In this document: positions 24,776 through 37,450 of the stretch, piece by piece | Layout: each line of letters opens with the position of its first letter | Numbering within the stretch: position 1 is the first letter of the stretch | DNA from: Clostridia bacterium | GTDB lineage: Bacteria > Bacillota > Clostridia > Christensenellales > CAG-138 | Direction of reading: 5' to 3' | NCBI GenBank assembly: GCA_003246365.1 | Contig: QKAN01000053.1 | Coordinates: forward strand, 15,842-79,841 | DNA length: 64,000 bases | Position numbers and translations under genes: made by a program | The notes under the pieces: model-generated | Seen by the model: the letters and a program-made list of their open reading frames with translations, nothing else | Told to the model about the DNA's origin: nothing | Databases searched by the model: none

Positions 24776-25094
24776 TTGTCCTCAAAGCCCATTATTAGAG
24801 CTATTTCCGCGCATCTACGAAGTAAAGCAAATTGGTGCGGAGCATTCTCGCAGCAATTTTTTGTGGATGTTTCCGTTTAACAGCAAATAGCCCAGCTGGC
24901 GGCCGAGCTATCGTTGACGGACTTTGATACGATATTATGGAAGCCACCATATGCACGTTCATGGTGTATTTGGAAGGACGGATAGATGTTTCGCTTTCTA
25001 GTAGGAGCTGAGATTGAAATCCAACAAATAAGGAGGATGTTACAATAAACAACGCAATTTGAGTCAAAGCATCACAGAAATGGGATGCATATTT

Positions 25095-25721
25095 TCATTT
25101 GGCGTTGTCTTCATTCATCATTTCTTCAAAAAACTCTTCTGGAGGATCAACAAAATCCGGGTCATAATCTTCAATATCACTCTGCAGATGATAGATTTCT
25201 GGGTATGTGTCACTTCCGCAAGCGTCCTTCTCAAAATACCCCAAAAGAACTTGACAGATTGCGCTTTCCAACTCAACCTGCATGCTTTTTTGTTTGTCTA
25301 ATGGGAGTTCATTGAACTGGTTCAAGGATATCTTATGGATAACCAGAATGTTTTCCAGATAGCGATCATATAGAAATTTACCGTCCGACCTATCACGTTG
25401 TTGTACTAATAGGTAAGGGTATTTCTTTGCTTTCAGATTGTGTAGCCAAATATTCTTAACCGTGGTGTCAGAGCATCTCTCTACTTCTTCATGATATCTA
25501 CCGGATAAGTAATCGGGATCAACGTCCAACCTTTTAGCAATCTCATCAAGTAAGATAGGCGAAATCTTGTTTTCTTCAAGCCCTCTTCGGATTGTCTTTT
25601 CAGACCAGCCGATACCATTTGTCACATTGCCGAGTTTACGGATACTCGTATTTCGTAGTTCTAGAGCCTCCTCAAAACAAGACCTTCTAAAAGGCACCTT
25701 TTTCTCTATCCTCTTAGCCAT
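25095..25721 (-). CDS. HTH (XRE-like) domain protein
   Basis: 208 aa with AAGGAG 6 nt upstream. N-terminal 'FEEALELRNTSIRKLGNVTNGIGWSEKTIRRGLEEN..LDEIAKRLDVDPDYL'. The acidic C-terminal part is unrecognised. Confidence 0.65.
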   Translation of the reverse strand: MAKRIEKKVPFRRSCFEEALELRNTSIRKLGNVTNGIGWSEKTIRRGLEENKISPILLDEIAKRLDVDPDYLSGRYHEEVERCSDTTVKNIWLHNLKAKKYPYLLVQQRDRSDGKFLYDRYLENILVIHKISLNQFNELPLDKQKSMQVELESAICQVLLGYFEKDACGSDTYPEIYHLQSDIEDYDPDFVDPPEEFFEEMMNEDNAK

Positions 25722-25733
25722 ATATACTCCTTT

Positions 25734-25843
25734 GCGGACATTTTACTTTGAAGTGTCCGCAGTTGTTTTTCATCACTTATATTGAATTTTCATGCGCTCT
25801 GAGTATAATTAATATTGAAGCGAGGACATTTTGTCCGCAGTTG
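25734..25843 (+). promoter_or_regulatory. divergent promoter region with repeated operator-like palindromes
   Basis: TTGAAT (25782-87), 16 nt, TATAAT (25804-09). IR GCGGACA(25734-40)/TGTCCGC(25754-60). IR GGACATTTTGTCC (25824-36). Direct repeat TGTCCGCAGTTG at 25754-65 and 25832-43. Confidence 0.5.
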
Positions 25844-25900
25844 GATTGTAGCACAGAACTTTCAGATTTACAATCCATAAGAAAAAACGGAGGAGTAAAC

Positions 25901-26350
25901 ATGAGCGAATCATACGAGTCCCAAGAAGAACAGAAACAATATGGATTTTACGATTGGGTTAAGCAGTACAAGAAACCTATTATTTTCGGATGCTGCATAG
26001 TCGTCGCAACAGTCGCCGGCGTGCTAATCTATAAAAAAATGTCCCTTCATAATAGCGGCATCGAACGGTTTGTGCCACACCACAAACTGGAGAGAGAGGC
26101 TTTGTCACAACCATTGAATATCGAATGCTCAAAGCTGTCATCGGCTGATCCTATTACCAAAACTTCTATTGTTGAAGTGACAACCTGCCTTAATGGTGGT
26201 GAACCCTTCGAGATAAGCAAACATATCCGAAATCTTCCCAGCAACCATCAACCTTCAACAGACAAGATTTTACAGGCTCATGTAAACGGTATTGAGCTGA
26301 GCGAACATCAAACTTGGGTTGATAACTACACCAAGAATCAAGTTGCGTAA
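25901..26350 (+). CDS. small single-pass membrane protein, unknown function
   Basis: Start at ATG 25901 (GGAGGAG upstream), not 25748. 150 aa with TM 'IIFGCCIVVATVAGVLIY'. Confidence 0.6.
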   Translation: MSESYESQEEQKQYGFYDWVKQYKKPIIFGCCIVVATVAGVLIYKKMSLHNSGIERFVPHHKLEREALSQPLNIECSKLSSADPITKTSIVEVTTCLNGGEPFEISKHIRNLPSNHQPSTDKILQAHVNGIELSEHQTWVDNYTKNQVA

Positions 26351-26364
26351 GGGAGAAACGAGAA

Positions 26365-26592
26365 ATGAAATATCCAGGTTGTGGCGCGACGTTGAATACC
26401 TATGAGTCCTTTTTTGATTGTCCGGGATGCGGGTATTTTAAAATGAAGACAAGGTACGCAAATTTGGAGGAACAGAACGAGCGGTTTCTTAAGAAGTTTC
26501 TGGGAGAAGACAAAGTGCCAGAGGGGTGCGCGGCTTGCGGAAATCCTGCGTATCCTGATTGTAAAAGTAGCTGTCCGCTCTTCGATGGCTAA
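26365..26592 (+). CDS. small Cys-rich (zinc-ribbon-like) protein
   Basis: 75 aa with GGGAGA 8 nt upstream. 'CGATL..CPGCG' and 'CAACGNPAYPDCKSSC'. Confidence 0.55.
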   Translation: MKYPGCGATLNTYESFFDCPGCGYFKMKTRYANLEEQNERFLKKFLGEDKVPEGCAACGNPAYPDCKSSCPLFDG

Positions 26593-26685
26593 CAATTCAT
26601 ACTTATTTGAAGATAGGGGCAGCGTCGCACATATCAGATCACGGATAACCACTCGGTCGAGCATCCAACGTGGGATTGTTGATTT

Positions 26686-26716
26686 TGCACCCCCCCAACG
26701 CTAGGGGGTGCATTTC
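26686..26716 (+). terminator. hairpin / weak terminator
   Basis: TGCACCCCCC-AACGCTA-GGGGGTGCA followed by TTTC. Confidence 0.4.
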
Positions 26717-26746
26717 TATCAAAATTAGCGTTCTTTGCCAAAGAAA

Positions 26747-26777
26747 ATAGTTTCCTGTAAAGGAGACTATTTTTTTA
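26747..26777 (+). terminator. intrinsic terminator
   Basis: ATAGTTTCCT-GTAA-AGGAGACTAT followed by TTTTTTA. Confidence 0.6.
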
Positions 26778-26940
26778 TTATGATTCTAAGTATACGAATC
26801 CATCCCGTATATCCTCTTAATTAACCTGCTTCTTCGCCTCTTCCTTGTTTTTACCCCACCCCCATGATAGTATTAGCAGGAATCTAAAGATCAATTTCCC
26901 CATTTAAATATATCCACCCGTTCCGCAGGAGGCGCAAAGA

Positions 26941-28557
26941 ATGAATCTCCAGTTTTCCGAACGCAAACAGAAGGTTTTCATAGCCGTCTTTTTTTTGATT
27001 CTCACCATCGTCGGCCTATGGATGGGAACCGACTACGGCATGCCCTGGGACGAATCTTCCGAACAGCGCATCCTTGCGCAGAATTTGCACGAGTATGCCT
27101 ATCAGATACTCGGGTCCGACAGCTCGTTTATTCAAAACGCGCTGGCAAAGGGCGCAACGCTGATTTCGAACAGTGTGGAGCGCGACCACGGCGTCGCCCC
27201 GTATTATCCGCTTGCTCCGATTTTCTTTCTGGACGACACGCATCTAGTCATGCAAATCTGGCACGCATACACCTGGCTGTTGTTCATGCTCGGCGTTATC
27301 GCGCTGTATTTTCTGGCGCGCGAACTCGGCGCAAACCGACGCATCGCATCCACCGCATCGATGTTGCTATATCTCGCGCCCAGATTCTTTGCCGAAGGAC
27401 ACTACAACAACAAGGACGTAGTGCTGCTGGCGCTCGTACTTTGCTGTTTTGCGTTTGCCGCGCGGCTCATGCGTAAGCGCGGATATATCGCGGCAATTTT
27501 ATTCTCGGTTGCCGGCGCGTTTGCGGCCAATGTGAAAATCATCGGCATTTTCGCTTGGGGGCTGGCGGGGCTTGCAATTCTCTGGAAATGGCTCAGCGAG
27601 CGAAAACTCAGCGGCAGAGACATTCGCATCATGCTAACCGCAATCGCCTCATTCTTAGCGTGCTATTTTCTCATCACGCCCGCAATGTGGAACAATCCGA
27701 TTGCGTTTTTCCAGTATCTAATTAGCAACATGAGTCATTTCTCCCGCTGGGACGGCGCAATCCTGTTTGAAGGCAGGCTCTATCGTCCGGCACTTGGCGA
27801 ATCTCTCCCTTGGTATTATCTACCGAAGATGATGCTGCTCACGCTGCCGGTTCCGTATCTGATCTTCATCGTCTTGGGTCAGGTTTACGCAGTAAAACAG
27901 ATCATAAAAGACAAGCAAACCCGTCCGCTGCTGGTTGCGCTTAGTTTGTTCTGGATTCTGCCGCTGGGTTATGCGATGTTTTCTAATCCACTGGTTTATA
28001 ACGGCTGGCGGCATTTTTACTTTGTCTACGCCGGACTTTCGGCATTGGGCGCTTTGGGGCTTATCTGGCTCTGGCGACTCGTGCGCGACAAGCAACTAAT
28101 AAGAATCGTGTCTGTTGCGGCGGTCACAGCGGTATTTCTCACGCAGGCAGTCGTCATTCTGTCGGGACATCCTTATCAATATGTGTATTACAACGTGCTC
28201 GCCGGGCAGGTGGAAGGCAACTATGAGCTCGACTATTGGGTGCTGAGCACATATGACGCGCTGGACGAACTGGTCAACAGCACAGCGCGCAACCAAGATC
28301 TGCCGCTGATGATTGCGAAACCGGAAACGCCGCCGTTTTTATACCCCGTTACGGACAATCTAGATGCGCTGCCGCAGGACGAAAGAAACGCGCTGGAATA
28401 TACCGAGGAGGTTGACGGCGCACCGTATCTAATCTATAACTCGACCTATGCAACAATCGCGGGTCTGGACGAGCCGGAAGGGTATCATAAACTGATCTCC
28501 ATTCAAGGATACGGCCACGAGCTGGTGTCCATTTATGAAATCGACACAGCAAGCTGA
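26941..28557 (+). CDS. polytopic membrane glycosyltransferase (GT39/ArnT-PMT-like)
   Basis: 538 aa, more than 10 TM helices, an early 'WDES' loop and a soluble C-terminal domain. AGGAGG upstream. Family call is tentative. Confidence 0.6.
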   Translation: MNLQFSERKQKVFIAVFFLILTIVGLWMGTDYGMPWDESSEQRILAQNLHEYAYQILGSDSSFIQNALAKGATLISNSVERDHGVAPYYPLAPIFFLDDTHLVMQIWHAYTWLLFMLGVIALYFLARELGANRRIASTASMLLYLAPRFFAEGHYNNKDVVLLALVLCCFAFAARLMRKRGYIAAILFSVAGAFAANVKIIGIFAWGLAGLAILWKWLSERKLSGRDIRIMLTAIASFLACYFLITPAMWNNPIAFFQYLISNMSHFSRWDGAILFEGRLYRPALGESLPWYYLPKMMLLTLPVPYLIFIVLGQVYAVKQIIKDKQTRPLLVALSLFWILPLGYAMFSNPLVYNGWRHFYFVYAGLSALGALGLIWLWRLVRDKQLIRIVSVAAVTAVFLTQAVVILSGHPYQYVYYNVLAGQVEGNYELDYWVLSTYDALDELVNSTARNQDLPLMIAKPETPPFLYPVTDNLDALPQDERNALEYTEEVDGAPYLIYNSTYATIAGLDEPEGYHKLISIQGYGHELVSIYEIDTAS

Positions 28558-28668: not shown

Positions 28669-31584
28669 TTAATATTCGTCACGGTTCTTGGTGTAGAGCC
28701 AGATGCCGCCGACGATCAGCGCAATCGCAATCAGGATGATCGCCGCAATGAACCAGCCGTCCGATGCAATTCCGTTCAGGAACCCTTCGCCAGACGCCGC
28801 GTCGGAAGGCGACGGGGTGGCGGAAAGATCAGCCGAGGGCGAAGGCGTCGGCGAAGTGCTGACGTCATTGATGTCCTGATTCAGAAATACATAATCCGAG
28901 CAGTGCGACTGTGTTACGGTAGCCCAGCCGCTGGAATCCACCGTAGTCGTCTGCATGAATGTGAGCGTATTGTCGTCATTCAACAGATAATAATACAGCG
29001 TTTTGCCCGCCTGCGCGGCACCGAGCCAGAAACGAATCGTTGCTTCGCCCGGCAGATCGCCGCTGTAGTTGAAATGGATCGTCGCTACATACGCGTCACC
29101 GGCAATTTCCTTGGCGGTCTGCTCAGCAATGGAACTGTTGATCGTCGTACCAAAGTCGTACCAAAGCTGCGTATAGGTGTCCGTCATCGTTCCCTTCGCA
29201 AAGGTGAACTCGACGTTATCCTGTTTAATCGTAACATCCTGCGTCTTGTTGCCCGCGGCAAGGCTCTTCATTGTGGAGTAAAGAATGCGGGTGTTGTCTT
29301 CCGTCAGCGTATAGGTATACAGCGTTGTGCCGCTGGAATCATCCGTCGTCGTGCTTGTGCTGCTTGCGGTGGGCGTCGGCGTTGCGGTGTCTTCGTCATC
29401 GTCGTCGCTGGTAGACGCGGTTACCGTATAAGTTGAATACGCGGCGCTCTTATCCGAAGCTTCGGTCGTCGCGGTCGCCTTATATCGCTGATAGAACGTA
29501 TAGCTCGTGCCGGACGAAAGCCCGCTGAACGTTGTACTGTCCTGCCAGGTTGTCCCGCCGCGCGAATATTCGCAGCCGTCCACAGTGTTGAGCACAATCT
29601 TGGTGGTCGTGCGGCTATATCGCGTCGGCGCGGATGGCGCGTCTCCAACATAATACGCCTTGGCAACCGTGCCGAACGAGCGCGTTACGCTGCCGCCCTG
29701 CACAGAGCTGGTGACCTCAACGGAAAGCGTGTTGGAGATATCCGCCGCCTGAACAACATAGCTCGTTCCCGTGCCGACGGTAACAGTTCCGCGTTTCCAG
29801 GTATAGGTCAACGTCCCCGTATTATTCGTGTCGGAAAGAGATACGGTAATCGTTATCCCGTATCGCGCCTCACCGCTGGACATCACGGTTCCCGTCAGCG
29901 CAGGCAACGTGGAGAAGTTTGCGCTTGCACTCGCTGCGGAAGCATATGTGGTGGTGGTTTCCGCAACGCGTTGATAGAAGGTATACGTTGCGCCGGCAAC
30001 TAGGTTATGGAACGTCGTCGTATCCTGCCAGTAGGTTCCGCCGAGGGAATATTGGTATCCGCTGACTTCAGTGAGCGTAATGCTCGTTGCGGTTGCGCTC
30101 GCCTGTGTCGGTGCGGCGGGTACGGTTGCGTTAACCGCCTTGAGTACGGCAGTCGTCGTGCCGGAGATTGTGCCGCTTTGTTCGGTGGTCGAAACGGTGA
30201 GCGTCAACGTTGAACCGACGTCATCGCCGGTTGGCGTATAGGTTGCCGTCGTGCCGACGGTTGTATCGCCGCGTTTCCAGAGGTAGGCGATCGTTCCGGA
30301 CGCATTGGACTCGGAAAGAGAACCCGTCAGCGCAACGCCGGACTGCGCCGTGCCGCTGAAGCTTACGCTTCCGGAAAGAATTGCCATCGTGGAAATCTTT
30401 GTCTCGTCGCTTGTTTCCGAAGCAAGCGTTGTGGTGGTGGCCTTTACACGCTGATAAAAGCCGTATTGCGTTCCTGTTGTCAACCCGGTGAAAATGGGGC
30501 TGTCCTGCCAATCTCCGCCGGAAATCATATATTCATAACCGCTCACCGTCGTCAGCGTTACGCTGGTATCGGTGGTGCTCAATGCAACGGGGGCAACAAC
30601 TGTTCCGGAATAGGGCGCTTTTGCAATCGCTGTTGTGGAGTCGGTCAAAACGCCGCTGGTCAGCGTAGCATCGGTTACATCCAGCCGGATGATCTTGCCG
30701 ATGTCCGCTTCTACCAATGTGTACGTCGTTCCATATGCACCGCTTGTCAGCGTGGTGTCCGTGTCACCCTGCCGCACCCATGTAAACGTGATGCCGCTCG
30801 TATCCGGTTGATTCGAGCCGGTCAGCGTTCCGCTGAGCGTGCCGCCGAAATACTCATTGCCGGATATCGTCACCGTGCCGGTAAGCGTGCCGTCCGTGCG
30901 GGAATAATACGCTTCCAAATCTCCGGTTAACGAATAGCTCGAAAGATCGACGCCCATCTGAGTTACGCCGTTTACTTTAACGGATTTAACGAGCACATAA
31001 CTGCCGTCGTCCATGTTGGTAAATGCAATCGTACTGCCGCTGGCAACTGCCTGTCCGCTGACGATTGCTGAACTGTTCGCCTGAAAACTCTGCGTATCGT
31101 TGGTTTTCGTGAAAATGACGGCAAGACCGCCCGAAACCGTTGTAAACGAAGCGTCCAGCTGCGCGCTCGGAGTCGAATCCGTGCTGATAAACGCGCCCGC
31201 GTTGGCGGTTACATCATAGGTAACGCCGGCAGAGAGTGAAAGCGCTGTTGACGTGTCGTCGACAAAATCGCCCAGATCATATCGCACATACCAGGGGCCG
31301 ACCGACTGGTTGCCCAATAGCGTTCCCGAAGAAGCGACGGCTGTATAAGTCGCGCCGCCGGATGGCGTTACCGTAATATTGATATCGCTTGCAAGCGTTA
31401 CGCGCTGGTCAAGTCGAAAAATAATCTTTTGATTTGCGGAAGCGGCTGCATCCGTGGTTGGCGAATATAATGAGACGCTTGGCACGGAACCAGCCGCAGT
31501 CGATATTGCGGTAGGCATAAAAAACGCCAGCGCAAGCGTCAGCAATACTGCCATTGCTTTCCAGTGTTTGATCATACGGGTCAT
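28669..31584 (-). CDS. large repeat-containing cell-surface protein with C-terminal TM anchor
   Basis: Start at ATG 31584 (AAGGAGA upstream), 971 aa. Signal peptide MTRMIKHWKAMAVLLTLALAFFMPTAISTAA; three 160-aa units; Asp/Thr/Ser spacers; terminal TM WFIAAIILIAIALIVGGIWLY. Confidence 0.8.
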   Translation of the reverse strand: MTRMIKHWKAMAVLLTLALAFFMPTAISTAAGSVPSVSLYSPTTDAAASANQKIIFRLDQRVTLASDINITVTPSGGATYTAVASSGTLLGNQSVGPWYVRYDLGDFVDDTSTALSLSAGVTYDVTANAGAFISTDSTPSAQLDASFTTVSGGLAVIFTKTNDTQSFQANSSAIVSGQAVASGSTIAFTNMDDGSYVLVKSVKVNGVTQMGVDLSSYSLTGDLEAYYSRTDGTLTGTVTISGNEYFGGTLSGTLTGSNQPDTSGITFTWVRQGDTDTTLTSGAYGTTYTLVEADIGKIIRLDVTDATLTSGVLTDSTTAIAKAPYSGTVVAPVALSTTDTSVTLTTVSGYEYMISGGDWQDSPIFTGLTTGTQYGFYQRVKATTTTLASETSDETKISTMAILSGSVSFSGTAQSGVALTGSLSESNASGTIAYLWKRGDTTVGTTATYTPTGDDVGSTLTLTVSTTEQSGTISGTTTAVLKAVNATVPAAPTQASATATSITLTEVSGYQYSLGGTYWQDTTTFHNLVAGATYTFYQRVAETTTTYASAASASANFSTLPALTGTVMSSGEARYGITITVSLSDTNNTGTLTYTWKRGTVTVGTGTSYVVQAADISNTLSVEVTSSVQGGSVTRSFGTVAKAYYVGDAPSAPTRYSRTTTKIVLNTVDGCEYSRGGTTWQDSTTFSGLSSGTSYTFYQRYKATATTEASDKSAAYSTYTVTASTSDDDDEDTATPTPTASSTSTTTDDSSGTTLYTYTLTEDNTRILYSTMKSLAAGNKTQDVTIKQDNVEFTFAKGTMTDTYTQLWYDFGTTINSSIAEQTAKEIAGDAYVATIHFNYSGDLPGEATIRFWLGAAQAGKTLYYYLLNDDNTLTFMQTTTVDSSGWATVTQSHCSDYVFLNQDINDVSTSPTPSPSADLSATPSPSDAASGEGFLNGIASDGWFIAAIILIAIALIVGGIWLYTKNRDEY
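29440..30879 (-). repeat. 3 tandem coding repeats of about 480 nt (Ig-like + FN3-like module pairs)
   Basis: The FN3-like core recurs at a 160-161 aa period: 'VSGYEYMISGGDWQDSPIFTGLTTGTQYGFYQRV', 'VSGYQYSLGGTYWQDTTTFHNLVAGATYTFYQRV', 'VDGCEYSRGGTTWQDSTTFSGLSSGTSYTFYQRY'. Each is preceded by a 'T(F/Y)TW(V/K)RG..' Ig-like module. Confidence 0.75.
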
Positions 31585-31890
31585 AAGCTCTCCTTTCCGT
31601 ATACGCGAAGGGCATATTGCCACGCGCTGCGGGTTACGTTGTATGCTTGTTTCGCGGGAGGCCGTTTTTTTAATCAAAATCGGGAGTTTCATGGATAAAA
31701 CTATATTCAGCAAACTCAGTATGCCACATCCGATTTTGGATTGCAAACGGACAAACCCGCTTCTAACCATAACACTCGGCAAATCCGCAAATCGTTGCAG
31801 ATCGTTTTCATTTTCTTCCAATTTTCTAAAATCTCAGTTCTGAATTTTGAAATCACGCCCGAATGTGGTTGTCTAATTTTATACTGTTCT

Positions 31891-31918
31891 AAAAAATCCG
31901 CCGGCATATCCGGCGGAT
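31891..31918 (-). terminator. intrinsic terminator
   Basis: Minus strand: ATCCGCCGG-ATATG-CCGGCGGAT followed by TTTTTT. Confidence 0.75.
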
Positions 31919-31941
31919 CAAATCCGTTTGTGTTTTTCGCG

Positions 31942-32154
31942 TTACAGCATATCCTTCAGTTCCAAAAACCGCTGATACAGCGCGTCGTATTCGCAGCCGC
32001 AGTCGCCGCACTCCTCGTTTGCCTGTTCAATTGCCGCAACAAGCGTGTCCCGGCAGTCTTCTCCCGCCAGATATGCCTGCGACGGAAGGGAGATGAGTTC
32101 CCACTCGGATTCCGCAAACCGCCTTAGGATCGCGGTCAGTTCATGTTCTTCCAT
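31942..32154 (-). CDS. small acidic Cys-containing protein, unknown
   Basis: 70-aa ORF, last gene of the nadD-rsfS operon ('EECGDCGCEYD'). Confidence 0.45.
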   Translation of the reverse strand: MEEHELTAILRRFAESEWELISLPSQAYLAGEDCRDTLVAAIEQANEECGDCGCEYDALYQRFLELKDML

Positions 32155-35537: not shown

Positions 35538-35557
35538 AAAATCATAGTATAGATTAG

Positions 35558-35596
35558 TAAAAAGGCGAGCAGTGTATAAACGCTGCTCGCCTAAAA
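35558..35596. terminator. bidirectional intrinsic terminator
   Basis: AGGCGAGCAG-TGTATAAACG-CTGCTCGCCT, with TTTTT on the minus strand and an A/T-rich tail on the plus strand. Confidence 0.7.
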
Positions 35597-35605
35597 TAAT
35601 GTTTT

Positions 35606-35776
35606 CTATCTCATCTTGCTTGCATGAACAGAAGTAGCTAGGTTATTATACGCGTCTTTTTTCCAATCAGGCCACCTCATGATTTCACCTTTTATCTCTT
35701 GGTACTTAACCGTATGTCCCGTTTGATTTTTTTGTTTCGAATACTGTGTGCTCTTTGATTTTGATACGGTTCCCAT
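35606..35776 (-). CDS. 56-codon basic small ORF coupled to the deaminase gene (not in ORF track)
   Basis: My translation: MGTVSKSKSTQYSKQKNQTGHTVKYQEIKGEIMRWPDWKKDAYNNLATSVHASKMR*. ATG 35776 lies 3 nt after the TAA of 35780..37240. GGAGGAG (the last codons of the upstream gene) lies 6 nt before it. The only terminator follows this ORF. Confidence 0.5.
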   Translation of the reverse strand: MGTVSKSKSTQYSKQKNQTGHTVKYQEIKGEIMRWPDWKKDAYNNLATSVHASKMR

Positions 35777-35779
35777 ATC

Positions 35780-37240
35780 TTACTCCTCCGTTATATTTGA
35801 TGTTTCGTCCTCAAAAATTATTCTTGTAGCATATTCACTTTCCAAGTACGTTAGTAAAGACATTGGGCTACGTAATGAGGCTGTTTCGGAATCCCAGTCT
35901 GCTTTTGTTCCATCATCTTTTTTTCTAGTTCTAGAATAACATTTTCTTGATTTCATAGCAAACAAATCTATATACTTACTTGGCCCAACGCCTACGAATG
36001 GTTCAAATAAAACTTTTTCTTTTTCAAACCGATTTGAAATTTCAGTTTTATAGAAGTCAAATGTCTTACTCTTTGGATAAGGCTCAATATATACAACTCG
36101 CTTTATACCAGCAGCAATAATATGTTTTGCACAATTGTGGCACGGAAAAGTAGTAACAAATAATTCAGCACCTTCGCATGAAATATTGTTCCTTGAGCAC
36201 ATAAGTAATGCTTCCATTTCTGCATGAACAACACGACCATATTCAGTCAGATCACCAATTCCTGCCTTCTTCACAGCTTCAATGTTCGCATTTGTACTAC
36301 TCTTTTTTAATGATTTCAGTATTGCTTCAATTATCTTTTTTTGTTCAATTTTATTACGATCATATCCATTAGTATAATCTCGTCCCCCATCTATGTCAGA
36401 AAAAGCCCCATCGATTTGTTGAATAGGCCAATATAACCCACCAAATGCTTTAGGACAATCATTTACACCCGATGCAAGGATTTCGTTGTTTTTCGCTATT
36501 ACAGCTCCAACTTGGCGAGATAAATCCGCAGAACGTAGTGATGTTGCATATGCCATAAACATAGCATATTCGTCAAAACTCGGTGTATAAAATGGTTCTC
36601 CAAATAACAAGTCCATTAGGCGAGATACACAATTCTTGATATAATCATTGCTGTCTTTGATATCAAAAAAATAGTCAGATAATTGAAAAGCTTCTTGAGT
36701 GTGTTGACCGTGTCCTATATTCTCATTTTCATCTCGATCAAGTAGTTCTTGTGCTTTGTTTTCAGGGATACCCTTCCGTTTCAAGAAACTTATTCTTCTT
36801 TCATAACTACTTGTTATACCAAGAAAATGCGCTCCATCTCCATATATTGCTCGAAGTCTTTGAACCTCTGATGGATGCTTTATGGATTTTACAATATAAG
36901 CGACTCTTTTTCTTGGAGCTTGTTGCAAACCGAGTACTTCTCTTTTTTGATTCACATAAGCCGCAACACCGCTCATTAATACTGAATTGTCATGCGCCTC
37001 TTTCCTAATTCTATTGCCTAAACCCATGTAGTGACTGATTCTATCGTATTCGTTCATACCTTCAGGACGAAAATTCGGTTCAAACTGAGATAGGATATCT
37101 TTGGAAACCGAAATTACTTCTGTTGAATAATGGAACTTGTTCAAGCAATCTTTCATAATCGAAATTAAATCTTCAACATCAGTTCCAACAGTAGTAATTA
37201 AGCCTAATACAAGTTCACTATCATTTGTAAAAATTGTCAT
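35780..37240 (-). CDS. AvcD/DcdV-like kinase-like + cytidine/dCMP deaminase fusion (anti-phage dCTP deaminase family)
   Basis: 486 aa, AT-rich. Deaminase zinc motifs HAE ('GRVVHAEMEALL') and PCxxC ('TFPCHNCAKHIIAAGIKRVVYIEPYP'). The N-terminal 230 aa begins 'LVLGLITTVGTD' in the P-loop position. AAAGGTG upstream. Confidence 0.8.
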   Translation of the reverse strand: MTIFTNDSELVLGLITTVGTDVEDLISIMKDCLNKFHYSTEVISVSKDILSQFEPNFRPEGMNEYDRISHYMGLGNRIRKEAHDNSVLMSGVAAYVNQKREVLGLQQAPRKRVAYIVKSIKHPSEVQRLRAIYGDGAHFLGITSSYERRISFLKRKGIPENKAQELLDRDENENIGHGQHTQEAFQLSDYFFDIKDSNDYIKNCVSRLMDLLFGEPFYTPSFDEYAMFMAYATSLRSADLSRQVGAVIAKNNEILASGVNDCPKAFGGLYWPIQQIDGAFSDIDGGRDYTNGYDRNKIEQKKIIEAILKSLKKSSTNANIEAVKKAGIGDLTEYGRVVHAEMEALLMCSRNNISCEGAELFVTTFPCHNCAKHIIAAGIKRVVYIEPYPKSKTFDFYKTEISNRFEKEKVLFEPFVGVGPSKYIDLFAMKSRKCYSRTRKKDDGTKADWDSETASLRSPMSLLTYLESEYATRIIFEDETSNITEE

Positions 37241-37391
37241 ATTACACCTTTGAAATGAAATGTATGATTATATATTAGTTTATACTGGAGAATAAGAATC
37301 TGCAAGAACTAATTATAACAGTATTCATCTCATAGTTTATATTTGTAATAAAACAACATCTCGAGCTATAATTCATAGAAAATATTAGAGA

Positions 37392-37420
37392 CCCCGCAGC
37401 TCACACCGCGGGGTTTTATT
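37392..37420. terminator. GC-rich hairpin (hutI terminator; also terminator-like on the plus strand)
   Basis: CCCCGC-AGCTCACAC-CGCGGGG with TTTTATT on the plus side. Confidence 0.6.
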
Positions 37421-37450
37421 CATCCAACTCTAATTAAATAACCAAAAAAA

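Follow-up and report, generated by a model that had tools for sequence, protein, structure and literature searches.

The window analyzed here, a 64,000-nucleotide stretch of contig QKAN01000053.1 from a Clostridia bacterium of the order Christensenellales, carries a small islet between a phosphohexomutase gene (pgm) and the hut operon. The islet contains two open reading frames (ORFs) only: a gene for a deaminase of 486 amino acids (aa) and, coupled to its 3' end, a gene for a 56-aa protein with a conserved W-P-x-W-K (WPxWK) motif (Table 1). The deaminase itself belongs to a known anti-phage family, that of AvcD and DcdV; what is new here is the two-gene arrangement with a conserved 3' micro-protein. 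A preliminary description of this DNA, made from its letters, had reported the 486-aa reading frame and the lack of a recombinase. The ORF was confirmed, and no recombinase was found in or next to the islet, whose flanks consist of core-metabolism genes.

Table 1. Positions of the features at the deaminase locus, numbered within the window. L numbers denote comparison loci; GC3, GC content at third codon positions; AF2, AlphaFold2 model.
Feature	Position	Strand	Basis
AT-rich foreign islet (cargo)	35593..37391	.	Lies between two terminator hairpins; GC, GC3, comparison with L001 and L016
Anti-phage dCTP deaminase (AvcD/DcdV family by sequence), 486 aa	35780..37240	minus	NF041025, PADLOC dCTPase, phrog_9198
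N-terminal P-loop-kinase-like domain, ~aa 1-215	36596..37240	minus	Predicted fold, Foldseek
Noncanonical P-loop G13-LITTV-G19-T20-D21	37178..37204	minus	AF2: between strand 10-16 and helix 23-35
C-terminal zinc-dependent dCMP/dCTP deaminase domain, ~aa 221-430	35951..36580	minus	Pfam, PDB, Foldseek
H339-A-E341 catalytic motif	36218..36226	minus	H339 and E341 invariant (18 homologs); aligns to HAE of S. mutans dCMP deaminase
P366-C367-H-N-C370 zinc motif	36131..36145	minus	P366, C367 and C370 invariant (18 homologs); aligns to PCxxC of 2hvv
56-aa WPxWK small protein, coupled to deaminase	35606..35776	minus	Linkage in profile search, dN/dS, relatives
Shine-Dalgarno GGAGGAG of small ORF, inside last deaminase codons	35783..35789	minus	Read from sequence
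W35-P36-D37-W38-K39 core of small protein	35660..35674	minus	W, P and W invariant, K nearly so (63 sequences)
Candidate extended -10 element TGTTATAAT	37312..37320	minus	Read from sequence; block CAAGAACnAATTATAAC conserved with L001
GC-rich hairpin at pgm terminator position	35563..35592	.	UUUUU follows on minus strand; relatives have a hairpin there, of different sequence
Conserved bidirectional terminator hairpin, far hotspot boundary	37392..37413	.	Common to L001-3 and L016:10485-10514

By its sequence, the larger protein is a member of the anti-phage deoxycytidine triphosphate (dCTP) deaminase family. It scores 436.6 bits against the NCBIfam equivalog NF041025 ('anti-phage dCTP deaminase'; cutoff 400), with residues 9-432 aligned to positions 1-435 of the 437 in the model, and it matches both the PADLOC dCTPase model (PDLC02373; E=4.9e-152, model positions 151-542 of 630) and phrog_9198 (E=7.6e-115). 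The housekeeping deaminase ComEB (TIGR02571), by contrast, reaches 73.6 bits versus a cutoff of 219.45, and only over the catalytic core (aa 336-390). The AvcD/DcdV-type identity proposed in the preliminary description is thus upheld. More than 6,378 homologs of the deaminase are found in databases. The gene very probably encodes a defense deaminase, and by homology to the characterized enzymes the protein would deaminate dCTP and deoxycytidine monophosphate (dCMP) and protect the cell against phage.

The AlphaFold2 model of the deaminase has a mean predicted local distance difference test score of 80.8, and sequence and Foldseek searches of the PDB returned no solved structure spanning both domains. 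Pfam recognizes the deaminase domain alone and gives no match on the N-terminal domain. The likeness of this domain to P-loop kinases, which had been pointed out earlier, is nevertheless supported by its predicted fold, for which a Foldseek search of the PDB returned the adenylate-kinase-related entries 3h0k and 3lw7 (template modeling score to the target 0.77-0.78, E 1e-5). Residues 10-21 read LVLGLITTVGTD, in which V18, G19, and T20 are invariant across an alignment of 18 homologs, and the loop lacks the lysine of the canonical GxxxxGK[ST] motif. The absence of a Walker A lysine is also implied for AvcD of Vibrio cholerae (S52K) and for the Escherichia coli enzyme (G29/C30), a correspondence drawn from published mutations and not from a residue alignment. 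The C-terminal domain matches dCMP_cyt_deam_1 (PF00383; E=7.4e-19, aa 221-385); its sequence matches in the PDB include 2hvv, 1vq2, and 2w4l, and Foldseek retrieved dCMP deaminases at E about 1e-8, including the bifunctional dCMP/dCTP deaminase of PBCV-1 (7fh4). Both halves of the zinc-deaminase signature singled out at the outset, H339-A-E341 and C367-x-x-C370, are present at those positions and invariant in the 18 homologs. In the characterized enzymes, both domains are essential: inactivating changes include G29A, C30A, C370A, and C401A in E. coli (bioRxiv 10.1101/2021.04.26.441389) and S52K, D162A/Q163A, E384A, and C411A/C414A in V. cholerae (bioRxiv 10.1101/2021.03.31.437871; PMC10511110). 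Among the relatives, the annotated E. coli plasmid proteins of the AvcD type are 31-35% identical to the window deaminase, and one on a plasmid of the cultured Vibrio nigripulchritudo, at 47% identity, carries the PGAP name 'anti-phage dCTP deaminase'. Some relatives stand beside other defense genes, for example HamA and a helicase with a type I restriction-modification (R-M) system and an integrase (L005-7), or HsdR (L008-10).

The junction between the two genes reads GGAGGAG-TAA-GAT-ATG on the minus strand, with the Shine-Dalgarno sequence 6 nt and the deaminase stop 3 nt ahead of the ATG of the small ORF. Elsewhere, the ribosome sites of the small ORF are of the GGAGG type in L001 and L004 and of a weaker GGAGA form in L010 and L011. 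In the window, the small ORF lies in the deaminase frame across TAA GAT (35774-35782), such that read-through would give a fusion; this shared frame is probably coincidental, since the offsets at other loci are out of frame.

Linkage between the two genes was assessed in 119 deaminase loci, made up of the window itself, 13 loci retrieved by exact-protein look-up, and 80 and 25 loci obtained by scanning metagenomes and viral contigs, respectively. A hidden Markov model of the small protein, iterated over all ~11,000 ORFs of at least 25 aa in these loci, gave 81 matches in 81 loci, each adjoining the 3' end of a deaminase gene and co-oriented with it, and none elsewhere. Relative to the deaminase stop, the start of the small ORF ranges from -58 to +47 nt. 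Its presence varies with identity to the window deaminase: counted per locus and not dereplicated, it is found at 31/31 loci with a deaminase identity of at least 55%, at 44/52 between 45 and 55%, at 5/15 between 40 and 45%, and at 0/19 below 40%. The 31 close relatives that all carry it come from unrelated genomic contexts. Downstream of the 47%-identical enzyme on the V. nigripulchritudo plasmid lies a WPxWK ORF that is missing from the annotation and has a terminator of its own, and a deaminase on a human-faecal contig deposited as phage is likewise followed by a WPxWK ORF. Fusion of the small protein into the longer deaminases was rejected, as none of the deaminase ORFs contains a WPxWK motif.

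The 71 distinct small proteins are 49-77 aa long and have little in common beyond W-P-x-W-K, for which all four proline codons and both lysine codons are in use across the family. Pairwise ratios of nonsynonymous to synonymous substitution rates (dN/dS) range from 0.06 to 0.28, the comparison of the window with L001 giving 0.06. Because these ratios are low and the motif is kept with varied codons, we conclude that the small ORF is translated and subject to purifying selection. The AlphaFold2 model, of modest confidence, suggests a disordered basic N-terminus, a helix at residues 25-33, a kink at W-P, and a helix at residues 37-54. Searches of the window's small protein against Pfam, NCBIfam, and PADLOC returned no match, and the PHROGs gave a single non-significant one (phrog_37843, E=0.18). 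A word-index search with the 56-aa protein alone retrieved itself and one relative; further relatives required a profile, which, searched exhaustively against 1.84 billion representative proteins, yielded 1,198 of them at E <= 1e-3. Wherever a name is given it is 'hypothetical protein', and the database listings of the relatives show no Pfam domain. We regard it as likely that the small protein is a functional partner of the deaminase.

The islet stands out in composition. Sliding GC is 0.29-0.38 over about 35550-37350 and 0.56-0.64 on either side, recovering past the islet, and between the stop codons of pgm and hutI (35538-37450) GC is 0.348. GC3 is 0.24 in the deaminase and 0.40 in the small ORF, against 0.65-0.76 in the six flanking genes (nadD-HD, pgm, hutI, ftcD, hutU, and hutH), in agreement with the early remark that an AT-rich segment lies between GC-rich core genes. 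The exact boundaries of the islet were drawn from the cross-species comparison with L001 and L016. It had also been proposed that the terminators of the flanking genes bracket the islet, which holds with two refinements. Both hairpins are stable, with folding energies of -21 to -25 kcal/mol for 35563-35592 (z about -7.8 versus shuffles) and -17 to -20 kcal/mol for 37392-37413 (z -3.8 to -5.2). The former is followed by UUUUUAC when read on the minus strand and by AAAAUAA when read on the plus strand; because the U-run lies on the minus strand, it is at least the cassette's own terminator. A promoter/terminator scanner called no terminator, the 35563-35592 hairpin having an A·C mismatch on the minus strand and no plus-strand T-run; stability was therefore taken from direct folding against shuffled controls. 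The hairpin at 37392-37413 is nearly base-for-base alike in L001-3 and L016, where it stands beside different cargo or a different neighbor gene, and by virtue of this conservation it belongs to the core boundary of the site and not to the cargo. Just inside the two hairpins lies a 13-nt inverted repeat, 35597-35609 (TAATGTTTTCTAT) and 37375-37387 (ATAGAAAATATTA), complementary at 12 of 13 positions; as a signal of the islet ends it was set aside, since it is not evident in L001 and is probably due to chance.

Related genomes were found by scanning species-representative genomes with the flanking pgm. The nearest relatives, with 80-91% amino-acid identity in this protein, are uncultured metagenome-assembled genomes labeled Christensenella, Christensenellaceae, Oscillospiraceae, or Bacillota/Clostridia. 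In four related species (L014, L018, L019, and L020), the order nadD-pgm-hutI-ftcD-hutU is kept without the deaminase, and the pgm-hutI spacer measures 76 nt in L019 and 105 nt in L020, each with one bidirectional terminator hairpin. The islet is thus horizontally acquired, on the evidence of its composition and of the gaps in relatives, as the preliminary description had supposed. Conversely, in the metagenomic contigs L001-L003 the pgm-3' site is occupied by a deaminase of 87% identity together with the small ORF, both oriented as in the window; the far flank there is a YuaJ-type transporter gene, unlike in the window. In a further related species (L016; complete chromosome, OW818651.1), the same two flanks, with boundary hairpins of the same type, enclose a different AT-rich two-gene cargo (L016:7658-10477), which consists of a 259-aa protein without a PADLOC match and a reverse transcriptase of the retron type, 670 aa long (PADLOC RT_I-B/II-A, E about 1e-38). 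The PADLOC match does not extend to the first ~330 aa of this reverse transcriptase. A GC-native minus-strand gene of ~150 aa occupies the same hotspot in L014 (7561-8011), with a homologous stretch in L017; the spacer hence also takes cargo that is not AT-rich.

The deaminase gene had been described as solitary, and unusual in that respect. In this genome it does stand alone, and PADLOC gave no match on ten neighboring large ORFs, yet across the clade the pgm-3' spacer is a recurrent hotspot for variable cargo, which includes defense genes. Synonymous divergence (pS) between the window and L001 is 0.76 in the deaminase, which is saturated, versus 0.32 in pgm, and this difference speaks against a simple vertical co-divergence of the two cassettes from one insertion. 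Independent acquisition or allelic replacement is favored instead, presumably through recombination in the conserved flanks. Bounded by conserved terminators, the spacer is a small, recombinase-free hotspot of use for the mining of defense islands in uncultured genomes of the Christensenellales/Oscillospirales type.

Homologs of the small protein also occur away from defense deaminases. In two phage contigs (L200:2902-4198 and L201) with genes for a GpA terminase, a portal protein, and an S49 protease, a 369-aa fusion of N6_N4_Mtase and dCMP_cyt_deam_1 domains lies between the terminase and portal genes and is followed by an overlapping gene for a 65-aa WPxWK protein. In another instance (L202:1-4192 and L203), the WPxWK protein comes directly after a string of PolA, an RNase_T-type exonuclease, and a uracil-DNA glycosylase, with no deaminase within 4 kb upstream; this string could be a phage replication module with a free-standing copy. 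The module is found in L199 in an island with AAA_15/21, NOV_C, and TerB genes, and in the fourth independent pick (L204/205) the WPxWK gene again follows a defense-type deaminase. A ~30-residue module, F..HLE.AS..V..WPxWKQ..LGG, is further embedded in longer proteins (P0324, P0229, P0301, P0244, P0323, P0293, P0314, and P0315): it precedes an HD_4 (RelA/SpoT-type) domain in P0324, appears as two tandem copies in P0229, and sits in the interior of several domain-less proteins of 240-270 aa. The family also matches the phage families phrog_38465 and phrog_29728. The contexts outside defense deaminases involve enzymes of deoxycytidine (dC) or deoxyuridine (dU) nucleotides or of DNA replication, and are compatible with a generic regulator or adaptor as well as with phage-borne mimics of an antitoxin.

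Characterized members of the deaminase family are toxic without their inhibitor AvcI, and the shut-off of transcription is the trigger for their release (bioRxiv 10.1101/2021.03.31.437871; PMC10511110). By homology to these enzymes, the window deaminase would be held inactive in healthy cells. Shut-off of host gene expression by a phage would then free it to convert dCTP and dCMP to dU nucleotides, and the resulting dC starvation would halt phage DNA synthesis. The 56-aa protein, translated from the same mRNA, would regulate the deaminase, most plausibly as a labile inhibitor in the role of AvcI, and the system would amount to a protein-controlled variant of type III-like toxin-antitoxin defense, brought in as a two-gene cassette and inserted between two terminator hairpins in the pgm-3' spacer. 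As a whole, this account of an acquired anti-phage deaminase cassette with a small-protein regulator, for which inhibition is the most probable mode, appears likely to us. An inhibitory role is favored because the enzyme class is toxic without an inhibitor, because no other inhibitor is visible at the locus, and because the partner is strictly linked to the enzyme in this branch. Taken on its own, the narrower proposition that the small protein is specifically an inhibitor or antitoxin is tentative, and we would place it somewhat short of an even chance.

Several points weigh against this account. The activity and defense role of this branch are deduced by homology, the E. coli relatives are 31-35% identical to the window enzyme, and the studied enzymes were compared by description. 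The small protein has no recognizable DNA-binding domain or known antitoxin domain in Pfam, NCBIfam, or PADLOC. Since it is encoded downstream of the toxin, its level is probably at most equimolar, with no excess of inhibitor to be expected, which is atypical of antitoxins, although reversed-order toxin-antitoxin systems do exist. The deaminases with a small ORF do not form a strict single clade, a quick neighbor-joining tree requiring at least 7 changes. The occurrence of homologs without a defense deaminase (L202 and L199) and as fusions in other proteins indicates that the small protein may act more generally than by inhibiting the deaminase. Finally, failure to detect AvcI is weak evidence of its absence, as AvcI homologs are not conserved in sequence.

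The best-surviving alternative, which we consider unlikely but worth weighing, is that the small protein is a positive factor, namely a sensor, adaptor, or structural subunit required for recognition of a phage cue, for assembly, or for activation. Co-translation from a coupled downstream ORF would suit a stoichiometric subunit; the module is portable, being fused to an HD_4 hydrolase domain and to other proteins and occurring in tandem copies; and in phages it adjoins other enzymes related to dC and dU, as a generic interaction or sensing module might. However, the characterized deaminases need an inhibitor to avoid self-intoxication, no other candidate for that role is visible here, and the disordered basic N-terminus and short helices of the model would be compatible with a labile inhibitor. 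A bolder version of the main account is that the WPxWK micro-protein replaced the AvcI RNA as the labile inhibitor in this branch and that the free-standing phage copies are antitoxin mimics. This is doubtful; if it is true, phages use such copies (phrog_38465; found after PolA, exonuclease, and uracil-DNA glycosylase genes or after methyltransferase-deaminase genes) to disarm the defense or to tame deaminases of their own.

A second alternative holds that the locus does encode an AvcI-type RNA, for example within the 5' leader or in overlap with the small ORF, and would be a standard type III AvcID system. AvcI (DifV) is a small RNA of 152-174 nt encoded 5' of avcD, co-oriented with it and in the same operon; Proteobacterial homologs carry a small 'hypothetical ORF' at the AvcI position, and the AvcI homologs show no sequence similarity to one another (bioRxiv 10.1101/2021.03.31.437871; PMC10511110). 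Homology searches would be blind to such an RNA, the leader (37241-37322) is conserved with L001, and the upstream spacers of some relatives exceed 600 nt. On the other hand, the boundary hairpin and the deaminase ATG are 151 nt apart with the candidate promoter included, and the leader that would follow the candidate -10 element is about 65-70 nt long, against the 152-174 nt of AvcI. The leader fold is unexceptional relative to shuffles (z=-1.27), the upstream region shows no conservation past L001, and conservation of the 3' region is explained by selection at the protein level. Rfam returned nothing credible on the locus; a Thr_leader match (22.7 versus 55 bits) was driven by the terminator hairpin and was dismissed as chance. 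There is thus neither room nor signal for an AvcI-type 5' RNA at the window locus, bearing in mind that AvcI has no sequence model, and this alternative appears improbable. The early statement that the companion is a coupled small ORF and not an AvcI-type locus accordingly stands, with the addition that the companion is conserved at the level of the family. For comparison, on the E. coli IncI1 plasmid CP057019.1 (L207:1697-1882), a 61-aa 'hypothetical protein' is encoded 35 nt upstream of a 34%-identical deaminase, at a position and of a size like those of AvcI/DifV; that deaminase, annotated only as 'deoxycytidylate deaminase', has no WPxWK gene downstream.

It is very improbable that the deaminase is a self-sufficient single-gene defense with a hitch-hiking or spurious small ORF. 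This possibility draws on the PADLOC match to a single model, on the description by Tal et al. of defense by one deaminase gene (bioRxiv 10.1101/2021.04.26.441389), and on the lack of a family match for the small ORF in Pfam, NCBIfam, and PADLOC. It is strongly disfavored by the purifying selection on the small ORF (dN/dS 0.06-0.28, with WPxWK kept through varied codons), by its identical position and strand in 81/81 cases and its presence in 31/31 close relatives, and by its strong ribosome-binding site and 1,198 relatives. Least credible of all is a housekeeping or phage-derived deaminase of nucleotide metabolism, of the ComEB or dCMP-deaminase kind or serving the synthesis of dU-containing DNA: the C-terminal domain does resemble dCMP deaminases and the family has PHROG members and relatives on viral contigs, but the ComEB score (73.6 versus 219 bits) is set against a full-length match to the anti-phage equivalog and a match to the PADLOC dCTPase, close relatives of this genome lack the gene, its surroundings in the window are free of phage structural and integrase genes, and deaminase relatives occur beside R-M and HamA-type genes.

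Comparison with known systems helps to place the cassette. The anti-phage dCTP deaminases of Tal et al. share with the window enzyme a kinase-like N-terminal domain and a zinc deaminase C-terminal domain, with the nucleotide loop and zinc ligands, as well as a sparse, horizontally transferred distribution in which many relatives sit in defense islands; the studied E. coli enzyme has 576 aa, the window enzyme 486 aa (bioRxiv 10.1101/2021.04.26.441389). The window gene, in contrast, stands alone between core genes and is followed by the conserved WPxWK gene. Relative to the PADLOC dCTPase model, it also lacks the N-terminal extension of some relatives. An extra N-terminal domain of ~100-130 aa is found in 16 of the 119 deaminase loci, at 44-48% identity (L161, L164, L168, L145, L156, L172, L134, and others). 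It bears the motif GG(V/I)MNW(F/Y)xSTGT(I/L)QFQGK, matches the N-terminal domains of Pfam RnlA_toxin and of RNase HIII (DUF3378), both below threshold, and probably corresponds to positions 1-150 of the PADLOC model. The notion that this extension and the small ORF are mutually exclusive alternatives was ruled out, as 5 loci carry both.

The AvcID (DcdV-DifV) system of V. cholerae VSP-1 has the same architecture of a P-loop kinase-like and a dCMP deaminase domain, with a noncanonical Walker A motif lacking lysine. The presumed logic is also shared, in that a toxic deaminase would be checked by a small, labile, co-encoded factor that disappears once host expression is shut off by a phage. However, the partner in AvcID is a 5' non-coding RNA, which is the defining feature of that system and is not detectable at the window locus, whereas the partner in the window lies 3' of the deaminase and is under protein-level selection. 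Type II toxin-antitoxin modules of reversed order, such as HigBA, HicAB, and MqsRA, resemble the cassette in that the toxin comes first, a small coupled partner lies downstream, and the compact mobile unit has its own promoter and terminator. With type II systems in general the cassette thus shares an adjacent, coupled partner gene, but the small protein has no helix-turn-helix, ribbon-helix-helix, or other DNA-binding antitoxin domain. The toxin is an RNase in those modules and a nucleotide deaminase here, and the inhibition and lability of the partner are here hypothetical. ComEB and the Cd dCMP deaminase of phages have in common with the window protein the catalytic fold of the C-terminal domain with HAE and PCxxC, but they lack its additional kinase-like domain of 215 aa, and the window gene is not conserved in related genomes.

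Defense by nucleotide depletion is established, whereas how a dCTP deaminase is silenced and released is understood solely from the AvcI RNA in a few Proteobacteria. The WPxWK micro-protein offers a concrete candidate for the missing regulator in a large and phylogenetically broad branch, the sources of which range from gut-type Clostridia (the window) through fermentation, faecal, sediment, and marine (TARA) metagenomes to a cultured Vibrio plasmid. Searches of openly accessible full texts turned up no report of a protein partner of the deaminase, nor is one mentioned in the studies cited above (bioRxiv 10.1101/2021.04.26.441389; bioRxiv 10.1101/2021.03.31.437871; PMC10511110), and the PADLOC model library treats dCTPase as a single protein, with no WPxWK partner included. 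This suggests that current defense annotation, with one gene in PADLOC, under-describes the system, and the occurrence of the module in phages hints at possible counter-defense.

Some minor observations concern other deaminases and the remainder of the window. The temperate Burkholderia phage phiE094 encodes a distant, 31%-identical deaminase of 570 aa, with two AAA ATPase genes beside it; the gene that follows, for a hypothetical protein of 73 aa (L209:3074-3295, gp46), is unrelated to the WPxWK family. Other deaminase branches may therefore have small downstream partners of their own. Elsewhere in the window, neither 25095-25721 (minus) nor 25748-26350 (plus) matched Pfam or PADLOC, and a 1050-aa ORF at 28669-31821 (minus) had no match at E <= 1e-5. 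Further low-GC patches of the window lie at 25000-27000 (0.39-0.43), 1-1000 (0.41), and 31650-31950 (0.40).

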